IMG/VR virus record: IMGVR_UViG_2778261216_000004
Direction: 5' to 3' (one strand)
Source of the DNA: a virus
Lineage: Duplodnaviria; Heunggongvirae; Uroviricota; Caudoviricetes
Length of the DNA: 37,627 nucleotides
The notes under the pieces are model-generated. The model saw nothing but the letters and a program-made list of their open reading frames with translations, had not been told where the DNA came from and did not search any database. The first letter of the stretch is position 1, and every line of letters begins with the position of its first letter. Made by a program: the position numbers and the translations under genes. This document shows, one piece after another, positions 12,059-36,526 of this stretch.

Positions 12059-12637
12059 TTATTGTGGGGCGACTGGCCACTCAACATCCGCTGCTACCGC
12101 TGTATTAACACGATTCAACAATACCCGGTATGTCTTCCATGCAGCCAGTAACGATGCCTCTTCCTCCGTTGCAATATCCAAATCTACGGCATCCTGAAGT
12201 GGCGCAATATGCTCGCTGGCTACCTGCATCAGGCTGTTTTTTGTTTCTTCCGCCTCCCTTATCCGAAACAGTTTTTCTGCTTCTGCATCTTTCACCCAGG
12301 ATGTGCCGTTCCACTTCTGATACTCTCCATACGGCGACAACCAGGTAACATTTTCCGGTAATGGACCGAGTTCAGAAATAAATAACGAGTCCCCTGATGC
12401 CACGTCATAAACCGTTTTACCCCGATGGTCTTCAACGAGATGCCACGATGCCTCATCACTGTTGAAAACGGCCACGAAGCCAGCCGGAATATCTGGCGGG
12501 GCAATATCGGTACTGTTTGCAGGCAGACCTGTATGAGGCGGAATGTATGCGTCACCTTCACCAATAAATTCATTAGTTCCGGCCAGCAGATTATAAATTT
12601 TTATGGTCCGTGGTTGTTCACTCATTCTGAAATCCAT
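12059..12637 (-). CDS. G: Tail fibre assembly protein (G-like chaperone)
   Basis: Tfa-like N-terminus ([24 protein letters not shown]). Start set at an internal ATG 3 codons into the ORF. Confidence 0.8.
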
Positions 12638-29112: not shown

Positions 29113-31869
29113 TTCCCAACGGGTCAGGCCACCCCGCAGCAGGTCTGCTTTGCGGTGGGCGCGTTCAGTGGTTTCACTGATTCTCTGTGCGTGCTCTGCG
29201 TCACGGATGGCGCGCAGCATGTCAGAAAGCACGGTAACGGGTGTCTTCATGGTGTTCTGGTCTTGCTGAAGTGTGGATGCCAGGCGTGCGGCGGCTTCGG
29301 GGTCTGATGCCCCCAGCTGTTCCAGATAGCTGGCGACCGGGTTATGGCGGATCTCCGTGCTGCTTACGCCGTGATTACGGCTCAGGCGCTGCCAGAGCTG
29401 CGTGATTCGGCTGTCCGGGCGGGGATCCGGTTTGCGTACAATTTCAAATCCCTGCGGTGCAATGATGCTGCCGTCAACGTACAGACTGCCGCCCCGTAAC
29501 AGGTGCTGCATCTGTTGTTCACCGATATGCAGGCCGAGAGATTCAGCAGACTCCCGCCATTCTTTAGCGAGTAATTCGTGGTTATCAGGCAAAGGCCGCT
29601 GCTGTTTGCGGCTCTGTGTCCAGCCCTGCATTTCATCACTGCTATTTTTTGCCTGTTTGTCACGAAGCGAACGCATCAGCGCCCGGCGTTCGTGCCGTTT
29701 CAGTGAGCGCATCCATTCGTTCACTTCAACGCCGTCAGGGAGCTGCGGCCACGGTGCTGGCCGTTCTTCCGGCTGTTCTGTCCCGTTGTTGTCCGTTTCC
29801 TGTACACGGGGACAGTTATTGCCACGAGTCCAAGGGGCGGCAGGGCCGCCCTGAAGGTCAAAACCATTTTCGTGGGCGCTGTCTTCCGGTTCTGGTTTAC
29901 GTCTTACCAGCTTCCAGTTATCCGGATGCGTGCACACACGGGAGGATTCCCCGATGAGTGGTGACCAGATCCCGTAAATCTGTACGCTCTGTTCGCCGTA
30001 ATCGTTCAGCTCATCTGCGAGGTCGTAGGCGGTGCGAATCAGGTAGTCTTTGCGTGGAACAAGCACGCCGCCCTGTTTCTCTATGTAGGTGGCAAAACAT
30101 CCGGCATCAGCGGCAGCAAGAACCGCATCCATTGCGTCATTTTCCAGACGTTGCGGTCCCTGTGGGTTACGTGCCATCTGACAGGCAAGGCGGCGCAGTT
30201 CACGCCACACCTGACGGGAAGGGATGCCAAAGAACTGGAACTGGCGGACCCGGTGAAGGCGCGCCCAGCCGATGGCGCGTTCCACGCTTTCTGCCATCGT
30301 CTTTCCTGATTCGTCGTCGATGCGCGGTTTGCCTGTTTTCGGGTCAATGCCATCCACGGCGCGGCTGTCCAGGTTCTTTCCGATGTAGGTGGCGATGTAG
30401 CTGGTTGGTGTGCCTTTTGAGCCGTCGACGTACTCTGCCTTAAAGCGCGGAGTTATGTCATTGCCCAGCTCGTGGCGGTCTTCGCGAATGGCAATATCAC
30501 GGGTGATGTCCACGATGCTGTCGATTTCTTCAGGATGTGCAAAGACCATCATGTGCCAGTGCACGGTGCCGTCATGGTGAGGCTCCACCGTGCGAATGCC
30601 ATACCAGCGCAGGCCGTCGCGGTTCAGTTTTTTGCGGACCGCCTTAAAAAACGTGTTAACCAGGTAATCGCTGGAATCGCGCATGGTGGCCCCGTTCCAT
30701 TTGGGGTTCGGATGACCGTTCTCCGTTGTTGCGTGGTACTTCGAAGGGGTAGTGACAGTCAGAAACACCGCTTTGTCGCCACGGGCTTCGGCCAGAAGTT
30801 CCAGCCCCTTCATGGTGGCCATCATTTCTGCCTTACGGTGAACCGGGTTACTTACTCCCGCGTAATACACCGTCTCGAGATCAATCGTGAACCCGTCTTC
30901 ATTTTCCAGCATGAAACTTTTCAGGAAATCGCGTGTTTTCTCGCGCTGTGCGCGAAACTCGCTTAACGCGTCCTGGCTCAGATAGGGTGATGTTTTTCTG
31001 GAAACCAGACAGGCGGCGCGGAGTTGTTCTTCCCGCCACTCGCAACGTAACAGCCACAGTTTGCGTTTCCACCATTCTGCACAGGTCAGGCGAAGGATTG
31101 CGCCCGGCAGCAGCTCCGTGTCCGGTTCGTTCCTCCGGTCTTTGTCTGTTGTCAGTGCGTCATAATGTGGAGGCATGGCGTGCAGGTGTAACGCCATGCG
31201 GGCCAGCATCTGATACGCCTTCAGCGTTACATCCATGGTCAGTTCGCCATCGGTCGCGCCAAAGCCATCGCAGAGTTTTTCGAAGGTGCTGCTGAACATC
31301 GCCGCCGTCATGGTGGCCAGTGTCTGTATCTGGTGTTTGTTGAGCTGCGGCAGGTAAAGCAAATCGTCCAGGCGTTCGCGTCCGGCAAGGGAGCGATAAC
31401 CCTGTGTCAGCCAGCGGTGATCGGTGCGCTCCAGACGTTCGAATATTTTGCGCAGGTTTCCGCGCGCGTAGCGTTCAGCCTGCCAGCTCTTTTTGCCTTT
31501 CTGACGATCGGCTTCCTGTTTTTTGCGCAGGAAGGAGAGGTGGCGAATAAGCGGATCGCGCAGATAGGACGGCAGCAGGCGCAGCGAGGCCATGGCTTCA
31601 TCCACCGCGCCGCGTGCCTGTTTTCTGGCATCTCCTGCCAGTGTGATGGTTTTGTCCTGTTTTTCCTGTGCGTCCAAGCTTTTATTAATCAGGTTGCCCA
31701 GCGGCGTTGCGGAGAACGCCGCATCAGCCATTTCCTGGCGGCGCTCGTTCTCTACCCGGTAGGCATCCAGCCAGGAGGAAAGCGCGGATTCAGGAGCGGG
31801 GATCCCCGTTCCTTCACGCCCCACTGCGTGGCGCGGTTGTTGCCAGTCCCTGATGTACTCTGCCGTCAT
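29071..31869 (-). CDS. A: Replication initiation protein A (rolling-circle nickase family)
   Basis: 932 aa, large early protein in the P2 gene A position. Confidence 0.8.
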   Translation of the reverse strand: MTAEYIRDWQQPRHAVGREGTGIPAPESALSSWLDAYRVENERRQEMADAAFSATPLGNLINKSLDAQEKQDKTITLAGDARKQARGAVDEAMASLRLLPSYLRDPLIRHLSFLRKKQEADRQKGKKSWQAERYARGNLRKIFERLERTDHRWLTQGYRSLAGRERLDDLLYLPQLNKHQIQTLATMTAAMFSSTFEKLCDGFGATDGELTMDVTLKAYQMLARMALHLHAMPPHYDALTTDKDRRNEPDTELLPGAILRLTCAEWWKRKLWLLRCEWREEQLRAACLVSRKTSPYLSQDALSEFRAQREKTRDFLKSFMLENEDGFTIDLETVYYAGVSNPVHRKAEMMATMKGLELLAEARGDKAVFLTVTTPSKYHATTENGHPNPKWNGATMRDSSDYLVNTFFKAVRKKLNRDGLRWYGIRTVEPHHDGTVHWHMMVFAHPEEIDSIVDITRDIAIREDRHELGNDITPRFKAEYVDGSKGTPTSYIATYIGKNLDSRAVDGIDPKTGKPRIDDESGKTMAESVERAIGWARLHRVRQFQFFGIPSRQVWRELRRLACQMARNPQGPQRLENDAMDAVLAAADAGCFATYIEKQGGVLVPRKDYLIRTAYDLADELNDYGEQSVQIYGIWSPLIGESSRVCTHPDNWKLVRRKPEPEDSAHENGFDLQGGPAAPWTRGNNCPRVQETDNNGTEQPEERPAPWPQLPDGVEVNEWMRSLKRHERRALMRSLRDKQAKNSSDEMQGWTQSRKQQRPLPDNHELLAKEWRESAESLGLHIGEQQMQHLLRGGSLYVDGSIIAPQGFEIVRKPDPRPDSRITQLWQRLSRNHGVSSTEIRHNPVASYLEQLGASDPEAAARLASTLQQDQNTMKTPVTVLSDMLRAIRDAEHAQRISETTERAHRKADLLRGGLTRWEQKTDRNGIHKSRK

Positions 31870-31875
31870 AGTGAT

Positions 31876-32241
31876 TTACTTCGTCATGCCATTCAGGGTG
31901 TCGCGGCAGACTGTAGCCAGCCGCTGAATTTCCAGCACGGTGTCTTCTGTGTCGGCATGGCGATGTGTGATGCGGATGCTGTCGGCAATCACATCGACGA
32001 TTGCAGAGGATGGGCGCTGGTAAATGCCAATAACGGACGGGGTGCCACCTTCAATGCGGTAAAGCCTGTAATTTCCCTCGTGGCTGTCAATCATGTAGCG
32101 ACCATCAATAACAATATTTCCGTCAGCGAGCTGCGGTACAGGCAGGGATTTCAGGTACATGTCATAACGATCACGCACGCGAGCGGCAAGATCACGTTCT
32201 GTGTTGAGCAGGTATTCAAGAAAGTCGTTGGCGAGAATCAT
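31876..32241 (-). CDS. Hypothetical early protein
   Basis: 121 aa, AGAGGA ribosome-binding site, immediately upstream of A. Confidence 0.55.
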   Translation of the reverse strand: MILANDFLEYLLNTERDLAARVRDRYDMYLKSLPVPQLADGNIVIDGRYMIDSHEGNYRLYRIEGGTPSVIGIYQRPSSAIVDVIADSIRITHRHADTEDTVLEIQRLATVCRDTLNGMTK

Positions 32242-32313
32242 TGCGGCAATCCTCTTGTTACAGATGTGCGAAGGCCTCCCGCCGCAAGGTGCAGGAAAGG
32301 CCCGGAACAGGAG

Positions 32314-32544
32314 TTAATGGAGTTTGTTTTGCTGCTGGATGAGCTGTTGAAGCTCGTGCAGATCATCCGCCAGATAGCTGAAAACAGAGGCGGAATAAAT
32401 GTTTGATAGTGCGTGGCTGCGCTCATGCAGCATATTGATGTGCATGATTTGCGCGACGCGTGATGCGCGGGAAAGTCTGCGGTTGATTTCAGTCTGGATG
32501 TGACGACGCTCCGCGATAGCGCGGTGTGGTTTGCGGTTTGCCAT
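32314..32544 (-). CDS. Hypothetical small early protein
   Basis: 76 aa, weak ribosome-binding site. Confidence 0.4.
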   Translation of the reverse strand: MANRKPHRAIAERRHIQTEINRRLSRASRVAQIMHINMLHERSHALSNIYSASVFSYLADDLHELQQLIQQQNKLH

Positions 32545-32723
32545 GGTGTGGCCCCTTGTGTAGTAAGTTGTGAAAACTCACCATCCAGAGCTGCGAAACT
32601 GTGGGTGGCGAGACGTACGAGGTTCGCAGTACCGGCTACACAAGAACCCGGCCCGACCGAAGTCGGCCCCGTACGCCCCGCCATAATTCTGACGCGAAAA
32701 AGACGTGGCAATACAGTACGCAC

Positions 32724-32744
32724 AAAAAAACCGCTGGCGCGGTT
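32724..32744 (-). terminator. Rho-independent terminator on the minus strand inside the early region
   Basis: On the minus strand, AACCGC-gcca-GCGGTT followed by TTTTTTT. Confidence 0.55.
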
Positions 32745-32930
32745 GTGCGCTTGTGTAGTCAGCAGGCTGCGAAACCCGGCACCCGTTTTATGAGATGCAG
32801 CGGAAATGTAACCTGACTGATTGCGGCATGGCAAGCGGTTTTTGTGTTGCGTACAGTGGTGTGTATAATCGCGGCACAAAAATAGAACGTGCCGAAGGAT
32901 ACTGGCATTTATTGACAATGGAGGTCGCTT

Positions 32931-33398
32931 ATGTCTGTTGCTATGGAGCATGCAGATCAAGAATTCGTTTTCCATCTGTGGTACAGCTACTGGCTGGAAG
33001 AGATGGTTTTCATACTCAACAACAAGGCCGCTTTTGTGCTGCGCTCTGGAGCCTTGATTGCTGCGGTGTTGTCTTTTCTTCTGATTGAGTTCCCTGCCCT
33101 GATGAGTCTTTGCGGACTGGTGTTTTTTGGTTTTTCCTGGTTTTGCAGCAAGTGTGAATTCGTCGCCGAACTGGCGTGCTGGCAGAAACAGAGCTATCTG
33201 CGTCTGATTACGCAAAGGGATTTTATGACCACTGAACGCCTCACTGAGCGCATTCTGCATCTGGAAGAAACGAACAGCGCATACATGAAAGCGATTGTCA
33301 GGCCCGCAAAAAACAAAGCGAGTGCATCTGTTGGGTTGTCTGCCAGCGAACATTTGCGTTACTCCGAAAGGTTAATTTGCTGGTTGTGCAGTTTCTGA
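32931..33398 (+). CDS. Membrane protein with its own promoter, opposite in orientation to the early operon
   Basis: 155 aa with 2-3 hydrophobic segments and a coiled-coil C-terminus. GGAGG ribosome-binding site and a TATAAT -10 box at 32866-32871. Confidence 0.55.
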   Translation: MSVAMEHADQEFVFHLWYSYWLEEMVFILNNKAAFVLRSGALIAAVLSFLLIEFPALMSLCGLVFFGFSWFCSKCEFVAELACWQKQSYLRLITQRDFMTTERLTERILHLEETNSAYMKAIVRPAKNKASASVGLSASEHLRYSERLICWLCSF

Positions 33399-33463
33399 AC
33401 TGTGAAGAGCCTGTTGGCATCTCGGAAATGATGATGGATGTAATTCCTGGTGGTTGATGGTGC

Positions 33464-33730
33464 TCATGCTCTGGCTTCCTTCAGTAGCTGGTTAAACATG
33501 TGAGTAAGTGGATTGCTACACCCGAACGGCATCGGGTTTACGTGGTAAGAAGCCTGGCCTCCTGTTTTGCGAGCGCGACCACCTGTGCTGCGGTTTGTTC
33601 TGATGACTAAGCCGCCGCGCCAAAGTTGGCGTAACTCAGCATTAATGGCTGTGGTTGGAGTATTCAGTGCTGCGGCGATCTCTCCGCCGCTACACCCCGG
33701 ATGAGTAGCGATGTAGTCCAGAATGGTCAT
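33464..33730 (-). CDS. Small winged-helix-like DNA-binding protein
   Basis: 88 aa; GGEIAAALNTPTTAINAELRQLWRGGLV looks like a helix-turn-helix. Confidence 0.45.
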   Translation of the reverse strand: MTILDYIATHPGCSGGEIAAALNTPTTAINAELRQLWRGGLVIRTNRSTGGRARKTGGQASYHVNPMPFGCSNPLTHMFNQLLKEARA

Positions 33731-33930
33731 CTACGTGGCTCCTGTACTTGTCGGATAAGATTCACCCGCGCCACGTTGGTGGCGCAGAAATAAGTGCCGT
33801 CAGTGAGGTAGATGTGGTGTGCATCCTTTTCCGAACGATGTTTGTCGATAGTGGTAATCAGGCGTTCCTCGACCTCGTATTCGCGCCCTCTGGAGGTAAA
33901 GCGAACGACGGAAAAATGCTTAATTGCCAT
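33727..33930 (-). CDS. Hypothetical early protein
   Basis: 67 aa, stop overlaps the next gene's start. Confidence 0.4.
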   Translation of the reverse strand: MAIKHFSVVRFTSRGREYEVEERLITTIDKHRSEKDAHHIYLTDGTYFCATNVARVNLIRQVQEPRR

Positions 33931-35802: not shown

Positions 35803-36090
35803 TTAAAGCCCCAGCCACAACAACCATGCATCGCGGCGTTCTTTCGGCTGATCAAAAAACGCTTTGCGCATACCTGCGTTAAATGCTGGCAGATATACCC
35901 AGTTTTCTGATGCTCGCGTCTTCACTGAACCTGGTTTCACAAAGTCAATCGTTGGTAACTTTGCAGCGTCAATCATGGTTCTGACGGTTGATTCTTTGCG
36001 ACCAATCATCTTGGCAAATAGTTGATATGGCACCGCTTCAAGTGGATATGGTGCTACCTGAATGAACCCCTCAAGCTCTGATTCGCTCAT
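35803..36090 (-). CDS. cox: Cox-like excisionase and lysis-lysogeny regulator
   Basis: PYQLFAKMIG...WVYLPAFNAG...WLLWLGL matches P2 Cox (IPYQEFAKLIG...YWVYLPAWNNG...WLMWLGL). AGGAG ribosome-binding site. Confidence 0.8.
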   Translation of the reverse strand: MSESELEGFIQVAPYPLEAVPYQLFAKMIGRKESTVRTMIDAAKLPTIDFVKPGSVKTRASENWVYLPAFNAGMRKAFFDQPKERRDAWLLWLGL

Positions 36091-36205
36091 TGTGGTAATC
36101 TCCTTAATTCGTCCAAATGGCCCAAAATGGCTTATATAGGCTTATTTTGGCTATTTGAATGTTTTGTATTACATGTAACCCAATAGCGTGGAGTTTAGAT
36201 CACAT
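36091..36205. promoter_or_regulatory. Divergent C/cox switch region with direct-repeat operators
   Basis: Repeats AAATGGCccaAAATGGCttat and GGCTTATTTTGGCTATTT between the divergent cox and C starts. Confidence 0.45.
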
Positions 36206-36526
36206 ATGATCCATAAATCAAGCCTTGGAGAAAAACTTCGCCTGATTCGAGAGGCAGAGGGATTGTCACGTAGAGAGATGGAAGAGGTGACAGGGGTATC
36301 TCAAAACAATCTCAAAAATTATGAAATATTGGGAAGAATGATACCTGGAGAAACGCTACTCCTGATTTTGAATCATCCTCGTTTTCGGAAGTATTCGGAT
36401 TGGGTGATGTTTAATCAAACTAATGCTGCGACGGGGCAGATTGCTCCGCCTCTCTCTCTTGATGGCTTCTTCGATTCGGAGGGCGATCAGGTTTCAACCG
36501 AAACAAACCAAAAATCACCCCGCTAA
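36206..36526 (+). CDS. C: Immunity repressor C (helix-turn-helix)
   Basis: EKLRLIREAEGLSRREMEEVTGVSQNNLKNYE; overall layout like P2 C, upstream of int. Confidence 0.75.
   Translation: MIHKSSLGEKLRLIREAEGLSRREMEEVTGVSQNNLKNYEILGRMIPGETLLLILNHPRFRKYSDWVMFNQTNAATGQIAPPLSLDGFFDSEGDQVSTETNQKSPR

Follow-up and report, generated by a model that had tools for sequence, protein, structure and literature searches.

The window analysed here is a 37,627-nucleotide (nt) stretch of DNA (IMG/VR record IMGVR_UViG_2778261216_000004) which, as judged by nucleotide similarity, is a Xuanwuvirus prophage (P88-like, Peduoviridae, P2 family) of Escherichia coli. It contains an island, positions 32545–32930, that is the exact interval between two start codons, those of a minus-strand open reading frame (ORF) of 76 amino acids (aa; start at 32544) and a plus-strand ORF of 155 aa (start at 32931). 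We found that this island is very probably an IsrK-C4 antisense-RNA immunity module, of the kind represented by seqA-CI-seqC in P4, immI in P1/P7 and isrK-STnc1160 in Gifsy-1. An earlier note on this DNA had proposed a candidate small structured RNA here, which was right in kind; the island holds two RNAs, both on the minus strand and both members of known Rfam families (RF01394 and RF01695). The same note had treated the island as one unit of ~380 bp, and this did not hold up, as the right-hand ~80 bp (32850–32930) belong to a divergent plus-strand cargo gene.

Rfam was searched with the curated gathering thresholds. An IsrK-like RNA, the equivalent of P4 seqA and of P1 a1/b1, was matched on the minus strand at 32724..32798 (RF01394; 63 bits against a cut-off of 50; model positions 1–77 of 77). 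It consists of two 5' hairpins and an intrinsic terminator (stem 32744–32729 followed by a U-run), and the evidence for this fold is the Rfam alignment. Its terminator, with the T-run extending to ~32724 (−17.2 kcal/mol, z −3.5), is the minus-strand terminator that had been noticed earlier. The accompanying argument, that a terminator inside a P2-type early operon would be unexpected, is contradicted by the GenBank records of P2 and 186, both of which annotate terminators within the early operon (one after gene B in P2; tR1 and tM1 in 186). A C4-type antisense RNA was matched at 32601..32688, also on the minus strand (RF01695; 83.2 bits against a cut-off of 45; model positions 1–87 of 87; E = 4e-15). 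It folds into a long closing stem that encloses a UUCG hairpin (32666–32653) and a second hairpin, with a minimum free energy (MFE) of −47.7 kcal/mol and a z-score of −4.46. The first of these hairpins, CCGAC-UUCG-GUCGG, is the tetraloop hairpin of the earlier note, which had placed it 2 nt away.

The nested repeats for which the island had been singled out were present as claimed. CTTGTGTAG occurs at 32555 and 32750 with its inverse CTACACAAG at 32636, and GCTGCGAAAC occurs at 32590 and 32766 with an inverse at 32620–32629 (10 nt, 90% complementary). Words with two direct copies and one inverted copy were counted in 32545–32930 and in 2000 dinucleotide shuffles of it. Six were observed at k = 7 (0.29 expected; reached by none of the 2000 shuffles) and one at k = 9 (0.0025 expected; reached by 0.2% of shuffles), and because the shuffles so seldom reached these counts, the repeat pattern is far beyond chance. 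Read on the minus strand, the repeats are the six classical interaction sites: b1 (UUCGCAG, 32773–32767) and a1 (CUACACAAG, 32758–32750) within IsrK; a' (CUUGUGUAG, 32644–32636) in the loop of C4 hairpin 2 and b' (CUGCGAA, 32629–32623) in the single strand of C4 that follows this hairpin; and, beyond C4, b2 (UUCGCAG, 32591..32597), which begins 4 nt past the C4 3' end, and a2 (CUACACAAG, 32563–32555, extendable by two G-U pairs to 32553). The complementarity underlying the nested stem-loop of ~90 nt that had been drawn at 32555–32643 is therefore real, but it represents a duplex between C4 and its downstream target and not the fold of C4 itself.

The a2 site overlaps the Shine-Dalgarno (SD) sequence AAGGGG (32557–32552) of the 76-aa ORF, which is located 7 nt before the AUG at 32544. 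The protein encoded by this ORF (32314..32544, minus strand) is a homologue of the 'derepression' (anti-repressor) protein epsilon of P4, since it matched Pfam PF25738 'Derepression' with 32.5 bits (cut-off 27) and aligned with P4 epsilon over 66 aa (E = 4e-9). Variable sites in the gene were distributed 19/19/37 over the three codon positions. The P4 epsilon protein has been described as an anti-repressor that inactivates the P2 C repressor (PMC2669165), and the 76-aa protein is, by homology, a candidate anti-repressor.

To place the module among its relatives, we assembled 25 related loci from P88-like phages and prophages, from lambdoid Stx, Salmonella and Klebsiella phages, and from P4. 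The P88-like loci were located both by similarity at the DNA level and by way of proteins homologous to the 76-aa protein, and a related-locus search of a genome collection gave three close relatives. Thirteen distinct P88-like copies were used for site alignment, and 22 distinct loci for tests of fold and target. All 25 loci, including P4, contained isrK followed by C4, both above the Rfam cut-offs. Over the 22 loci, 99.8% of the C4 fold was paired and 15 of its 27 pairs co-varied, compared to 33–46% paired when the partner strand was slid by 1–3 columns. The 311-nt region had a mean identity of 89% among the 13 P88-like copies, with a nearly invariant backbone and with variation clustered in a1, b1, a', b', a2 and b2. 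Covariance analysis across homologous prophages, a check that the earlier note had suggested, showed that the repeats were kept paired and co-varied in these loci. Pairing of a' with a2 was retained in 97.4% of cells (5 of 9 pairs changed on both sides), while b':b2, a1:a' and b1:b' were each 100% paired, with 4 of 7, 6 of 9 and 4 of 7 pairs changed on both sides, respectively. Jointly, 19 of the 32 pairs had changed on both sides, a score that was reached by none of 500 shuffles; in controls in which the partner was slid by 1–3 columns, 25–54% of cells were paired.

The position of the targets was also preserved. In 21 of the 22 loci the partner of a' was 8–12 bp long, lay 35–41 nt past the C4 3' end and abutted or overlapped a ribosome-binding site; the exception was cdtI, in which the best a' match (7 bp, at +45) fell within the ribosome-binding region itself. 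The best b' match was found 3–8 nt past the end of C4 in 19 of 22 loci, and for two loci the best match called by the script was farther downstream, yet the cognate site was paired there in the alignment. Duplex energies were lower for cognate than for non-cognate combinations, both at a2 (mean −13.8 vs −6.2 kcal/mol) and at b2 (mean −9.6 vs −4.8 kcal/mol), and every one of the 22 C4 RNAs ranked its own downstream target first. Thus, the module shows the C4 fold, a2/b2 at the ribosome-binding site and a1/b1 upstream, and it occurs in many distinct specificities: at least 10 variants of a' and 5 of b' were found on a near-identical backbone among the P88-like loci. In one locus (L009 3747–5051, E. 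coli GCA_900448625.1) the unit isrK-C4-epsilon-like was duplicated in tandem, with different a'/b' sequences in the two copies (UUCGUUUG/GUGGAAA vs UUUGCUAG/CUGCGAA) and nearly identical 73-aa epsilon genes, which suggests recombination between heteroimmune relatives.

The leader can also adopt an alternative, terminator-like hairpin (32573..32612, minus strand), in which the 3' strand of the C4 closing stem (32612–32602) pairs with 32587–32577, b2 lies in the loop and UUUU follows at 32576–32573. Its energy was −16.5 kcal/mol (z −2.6). Across the 22 loci 84.7% of it was paired and 7 of 11 pairs had changed on both sides, a level of covariation reached by none of 500 shuffles. This hairpin and the C4 closing stem are mutually exclusive; the hairpin has the look of a weak intrinsic terminator, which may be its role. 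In P4, a CI-dependent terminator t1 between PLE and cI, and a second, atypical one (t4) just after cI, were reportedly described by Briani et al. in 2000; by analogy, the IsrK terminator and the alternative hairpin would be obvious counterparts of t1 and t4. A third possible hairpin, UGGUGAGUU/AACUUACUA at 32561–32583 (minus strand), is located directly upstream of a2 and shares a GGUGAG segment that is able to pair with the C4 3' strand; P4 has GAUAGC/GCUAUU, found by eye, at the equivalent place. Taken as a set, these three alternative structures are reminiscent of an attenuator.

Transcription of the module is predicted to start at ~32798. A consensus scan called a promoter-like site on the minus strand at 32805..32834 (−35 TTGCCA at 32834–32829, an 18-nt spacer and −10 TACATT at 32810–32805), 7 nt upstream of the isrK start. 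The −35 hexamer was TTGCCA in 11 of the 13 P88-like loci and the −10 hexamer TACATT in 12 of 13, and in P4 and the lambdoid loci, too, isrK is preceded at this distance by equivalent hexamers. With this conserved site, the separate promoter that had been suggested for the genes next to the replication gene A is plausible. The scan also called a second promoter before C4 (TTGCCA-17-AATTAT, 32711–32683), which we rejected as a likely source of C4 because its '−10' is the conserved 5' end of C4, such that a start 7 nt further on would truncate the closing stem, and because processing from read-through transcripts is the documented route in relatives. The sole match to the LexA motif CTGT-N8-ACAG in the window falls inside gene A and none was found near the module; 32 of 100 shuffles gave at least one match.

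Among the closest known systems is the immunity region of P4. Both Rfam families are present in identical order and orientation, an intrinsic terminator ends seqA/IsrK, the two-segment antisense sites are repeated upstream and downstream, and the 3' strand of CI/C4 can form a hairpin whose loop contains b2. The first regulated gene that can be recognised is of the epsilon family in both, followed by one or more small ORFs and a replication gene; the order in P4 (isrK 8692–8615, C4 8507–8420, epsilon 8175–7888, orf151, orf106, alpha) mirrors that of the window, where a promoter-like site, isrK, C4, seqC, epsilon and the replication gene likewise lie on one strand. The two differ in that P4 is a satellite and the window a complete, helper-type phage of the P2 family, that the P4 replication gene alpha is a primase-helicase and that of the window a rolling-circle initiator (A), and that the window has a P2 C-type protein repressor in addition. 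The spacings (C4 to epsilon, 56 nt in the window and ~245 nt in P4; isrK to C4, 35 and 107 nt) and the a'/b' sequences also differ. The module would act in the manner of the P4 leader, yet the element that carries it is no P4-like satellite: the P4 combination of an RNA as sole immunity factor with an alpha primase-helicase is not what the window contains, which has a C-type repressor, Cox and GPA.

On our reading, the immI region of P1/P7 (a1 b1-c4-a2 b2-icd-ant1/2) shares with the module that C4 is made from the transcript that it regulates, that the a2/b2 sites bound by a'/b' are at the ribosome-binding site of the following ORF, that the target encodes an anti-repressor, and that the RNA forms a second immunity layer over a protein repressor. 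The pairing logic of C4 and the site differences between P1 and P7 were reportedly established by Citron and Schuster in 1990 and Biere et al. in 1992 (summarised in PMC8198154); the sites differ between these two phages as they do among the P88-like phages. In contrast to P1/P7, the upstream element of the window is isrK with a terminator (the P1-type c4-a1b1 model remained below its cut-off, 18.5 vs 46.7 bits), and the module is part of the early operon of a phage, where it precedes the replication gene. Neither did the regulated genes resemble icd or ant1/ant2 in the Pfam search, in which the 76-aa protein matched 'Derepression' only and the next ORF, orf121, matched nothing; as no other family was matched there is no sign of Icd or Ant, a statement that refers to Pfam families and not to a direct comparison with P1 Icd/Ant. 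Gifsy-1 (isrK-orf45/STnc1160-anrP) and the Stx/lambdoid loci likewise have isrK and C4 matches with the same spacing logic and a downstream anti-repressor, are ~69–73% identical in nucleotide sequence to the window over the RNA region, and carry a conserved AUG at the C4 5' end which is the first AUG of orf45. They belong to another phage family, their anti-repressor is of the Ant/Rha/AnrP type and not of the epsilon type, and the frame of the window that is equivalent to orf45 runs past the start codon of the regulated gene.

In P1/P7 and P4, a stable C4-type RNA with repressor activity is released from a longer precursor, its 5' end being cut by RNase P. We propose that the module of the window would operate in a similar manner. 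A constitutive promoter at the conserved site would start transcription at ~32798, and most transcripts would end at the intrinsic terminator, giving an IsrK-like RNA of ~75 nt that carries b1 and a1. Read-through transcripts would contain the 88-nt C4 element, which by analogy with P1, P4 and Gifsy-1 would be cut out as a stable small RNA. Its a'/b' segments would then pair with a2/b2 on read-through transcripts, either of the resident prophage or of a superinfecting phage of the same specificity. The a2 duplex would cover the ribosome-binding site of the epsilon-like gene and block its translation, and the loss of translation together with premature termination would, through polarity, also switch off orf121 and A. 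The a1/b1 segments of IsrK would compete for C4 as a decoy or autoregulator and, when abundant, relieve the block. No other minus-strand terminator was found by scanning between 33464 and 32800, so transcripts from the early promoter Pe would run into the IsrK element; early transcription might in this way flood the cell with the a1/b1 decoy and help to open the gate to replication. These proposals agree with published work, in which IsrK and C4 were recognised as structural homologues of P4 seqA and CI (PMC3632133), IsrK was identified as the homologue of seqA and a ~80-nt STnc1160 was found to be processed from read-through transcripts in Gifsy-1 (PMC4825925), and full repression of ant in P1 required C4 (PMC8198154).

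The alternative that survives best takes the same parts and reverses their emphasis. If the logic of Gifsy-1 were dominant, a1/b1 would pair with a'/b' in cis and lock the read-through mRNA in a translationally inactive state, and the module would mainly be an inducible ON switch for the anti-repressor instead of a constitutive C4 repressor. We consider this possible but unlikely as the dominant mode. The a1:a' and b1:b' pairings, fully retained and strongly co-varying, speak for it, as does the MFE fold of the full 271-nt leader, in which the IsrK region pairs with the C4 region. In Gifsy-1 itself, IsrK binds Hfq and has its own promoter, the terminator is partially read through, translation of anrP rose 140-fold with IsrK in trans, and the changes G28A/G31A abolished control (PMC4825925). 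On the other side, a2/b2 are equally conserved and co-varying, with a2 over the SD sequence, and a pure IsrK-activator model has no need of them; C4/CI RNA is genetically a repressor in P1 and P4 (PMC8198154, PMC3632133); and the upstream frame of the window does not stop at the epsilon AUG, unlike orf45 at anrP. The Gifsy-1 logic is compatible with the same parts and is a serious variant that may describe the induction side of the switch.

Several points weigh against the C4-repressor interpretation as we have set it out. In Gifsy-1 the short IsrK activates the downstream anti-repressor, and constitutive STnc1160 did not prevent this activation (PMC4825925), such that the balance between repression and activation in the P88-like module is uncertain. 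For the P88-like group, the use of the promoter, the efficiency of the terminator, the processing and the existence of stable RNA species are predictions from the DNA sequence. The 76-aa protein is just 29% identical to P4 epsilon, and its stop codon (32314) is separated from the start of orf121 (32241) by a gap of 72 nt; control of A would therefore rest on polarity and not on direct coupling. Furthermore, epsilon type did not track C-repressor type, and a specific partnership between epsilon and C is thus not established. The window and P884B11 have C proteins that are 48% identical, with epsilon-like proteins 100% identical and identical C4 a'/b', whereas the window and Citrobacter phage phiSM have C proteins 99% identical and epsilon-like proteins 68% identical; between L012 and L014 the figures are 66% for C and 100% for the epsilon-like protein. 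Comparison of the window with L001–L003, L012 and L014 shows that C type and epsilon-like type assort independently. Should the 76-aa protein be an anti-repressor, its target is probably some feature that C proteins have in common; free recombination of the modules is the alternative.

A coding function for the island, either as an 'Ash family' protein or 'secondary immunity repressor' or as a translated leader ORF like Gifsy-1 orf45 starting at AUG 32684, appears improbable. The earlier statement that there is no credible ORF was essentially right, even though mechanical ORFs cross the island, for example a 371-aa ORF on the minus strand at 32238..33353. Pfam Phage_ASH (PF10554) was matched marginally over 32810..32529 (26.5 bits, cut-off 26), and several GenBank records have coding sequences here, named 'transcriptional regulator', 'similar to ash family protein' or 'hypothetical protein'. 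The P4 'ash/cI' ORF (L005 8168–8584, minus strand) also matches Phage_ASH, yet the product of that region is the CI RNA (PMC4825925), and tblastn with this ORF found N15 (gp32), phiKO2 and P1-like phages, in the last of which the match was at or next to the cell-division-inhibitor gene icd. Substitutions in the island are RNA-compensatory and concentrated in six short sites of an otherwise invariant backbone, which is not the pattern of a conserved ORF under protein-level constraint. We therefore read the Phage_ASH match as a translation of RNA genes; the family itself seems to be a protein model that was derived from an RNA gene, and it is behind annotations such as 'Ash family protein' in phage records and possibly also behind 'transcriptional regulator'.

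The frame that opens at the conserved AUG 32684 (to 32238, minus strand) deserves separate mention, since such a leader may be translated, as orf45 of Gifsy-1 is (PMC4825925). Its 148 codons span the entire epsilon gene without a stop, in 8 of the 13 P88-like loci the frame closes in an ATGA overlap with the start codon of orf121, and just ~5% of synonymous resamples of epsilon left it open. Against its translation, two of 13 close relatives have indels that shift the frame or cut it short (64 codons in Escherichia albertii, 16 codons in L016), no SD sequence precedes AUG 32684, and over epsilon the variability peaks at epsilon third positions, which are second positions of this frame. The open frame may serve ribosome transit or coupling, or may have arisen by chance. 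As short direct and inverted repeats beside regulatory genes and upstream of a replication gene, the repeats might instead act as DNA, either as operators (for C, Cox or another regulator; the earlier note had allowed for operators) or as iterons of a replication origin. This is hardly credible: the repeats change between phages in strictly base-pair-compensating fashion including G-U pairs (a signature of RNA), do not track C or Cox type, and fall precisely on loops and single strands in both curated RNA models, and the P2 origin nick site is inside gene A.

The surroundings of the island are a lysogeny and early region of the P2 type. The window is 99% identical in nucleotide sequence to P884B11, 92% to P88 and 83% to phiSM over 32300–32847, and similarity to all three stops at ~32847. 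An integrase gene (36608 onward), a P2 C-like repressor (36188–36526; 36% identical to P2 C) and Cox (35803–36090; Pfam Phage_Cox) are followed by a row of small minus-strand ORFs listed between Cox and the gap. Downstream of the epsilon-like gene on the minus strand are orf121 (121 aa, 32241–31876), which had no Pfam match and no similarity to P4 orf151, and the replication initiator A (932 aa, 31869–29071; Pfam Phage_GPA, E = 1.7e-130). The epsilon-like gene, orf121 and A share a strand, scanning of 31800–33800 called no promoter between them, and the order epsilon-like gene, ORF of ~120–140 aa, GPA was kept across all P88-like loci. On the other side, the divergent ORF (32931–33398, plus strand) encodes a membrane-like protein that matches phrog_6315, a family whose function is not known, and is preceded by its own promoter-like region and leader (32850–32930, plus strand; TATAAT at 32864–32869, SD sequence GGAGG at 32920–32924), back-to-back with the promoter-like site of isrK. 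The same slot holds opposite-strand ORFs of 154–161 aa in L010, L012 and L015–L017, and other genes in P88, P884B11 and phiSM; the stretch 32850–33398 looks like a variable cargo slot. Elsewhere in the window, at 12096–12294 (minus strand), Rfam gave a full-length match to IS009 (RF02111; 192 bits, cut-off 117).

The module was found in 1163 of 5426 complete E. coli genomes (~21%); P2 and 186 are without it. No feature was annotated over the module in any of the eight RefSeq matches listed, and several phage records annotate it as protein. Since it is common and is either left blank or annotated as protein, recognising the module would correct routine annotation. Both the RNA families and the way they act have been documented well in phages P1/P7, P4 and N15 and in those of the Gifsy type (PMC3632133, PMC4825925), but the literature searched contained no description of the module in P2-family phages, and the P88 genome paper makes no mention of it. 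This is thus not a new RNA but a known switch in a P2-like setting for which no description was found, and it leaves knowledge of how C4/IsrK systems work unchanged. Asadulghani et al. reported a P4 epsilon-like gene on the P2-like O157 prophage Sp13 and suggested it as a possible cause of the unusual mitomycin inducibility of this prophage, whose repressor is without a peptidase motif; P2 is reported not to be inducible by mitomycin C, and the passages of that paper on the Sp13 epsilon-like gene do not mention the RNA (PMC2669165). Phage 186 is induced via the LexA-controlled Tum protein, according to its record.

Before their epsilon-like and replication genes, phages of the P88-like branch have the RNA immunity circuit that their own satellite P4 uses, which makes the module a testable candidate for the derepression of P88-like prophages and for heteroimmunity between closely related ones. 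As a' and b' differ between otherwise near-identical phages, the module would also set a second, RNA-based immunity specificity that is independent of C. We tentatively extend this to a wider, still doubtful view, in which the module is a second, RNA-encoded immunity determinant under diversifying selection, independent of C, that gates a broad-range epsilon-type anti-repressor together with A. If this were true, the module would be the missing induction/derepression switch of prophages such as Sp13, a candidate carrier, would decide the outcome of superinfection between co-resident P2-like phages, and would interact with P4-like satellites that use the same RNA system.

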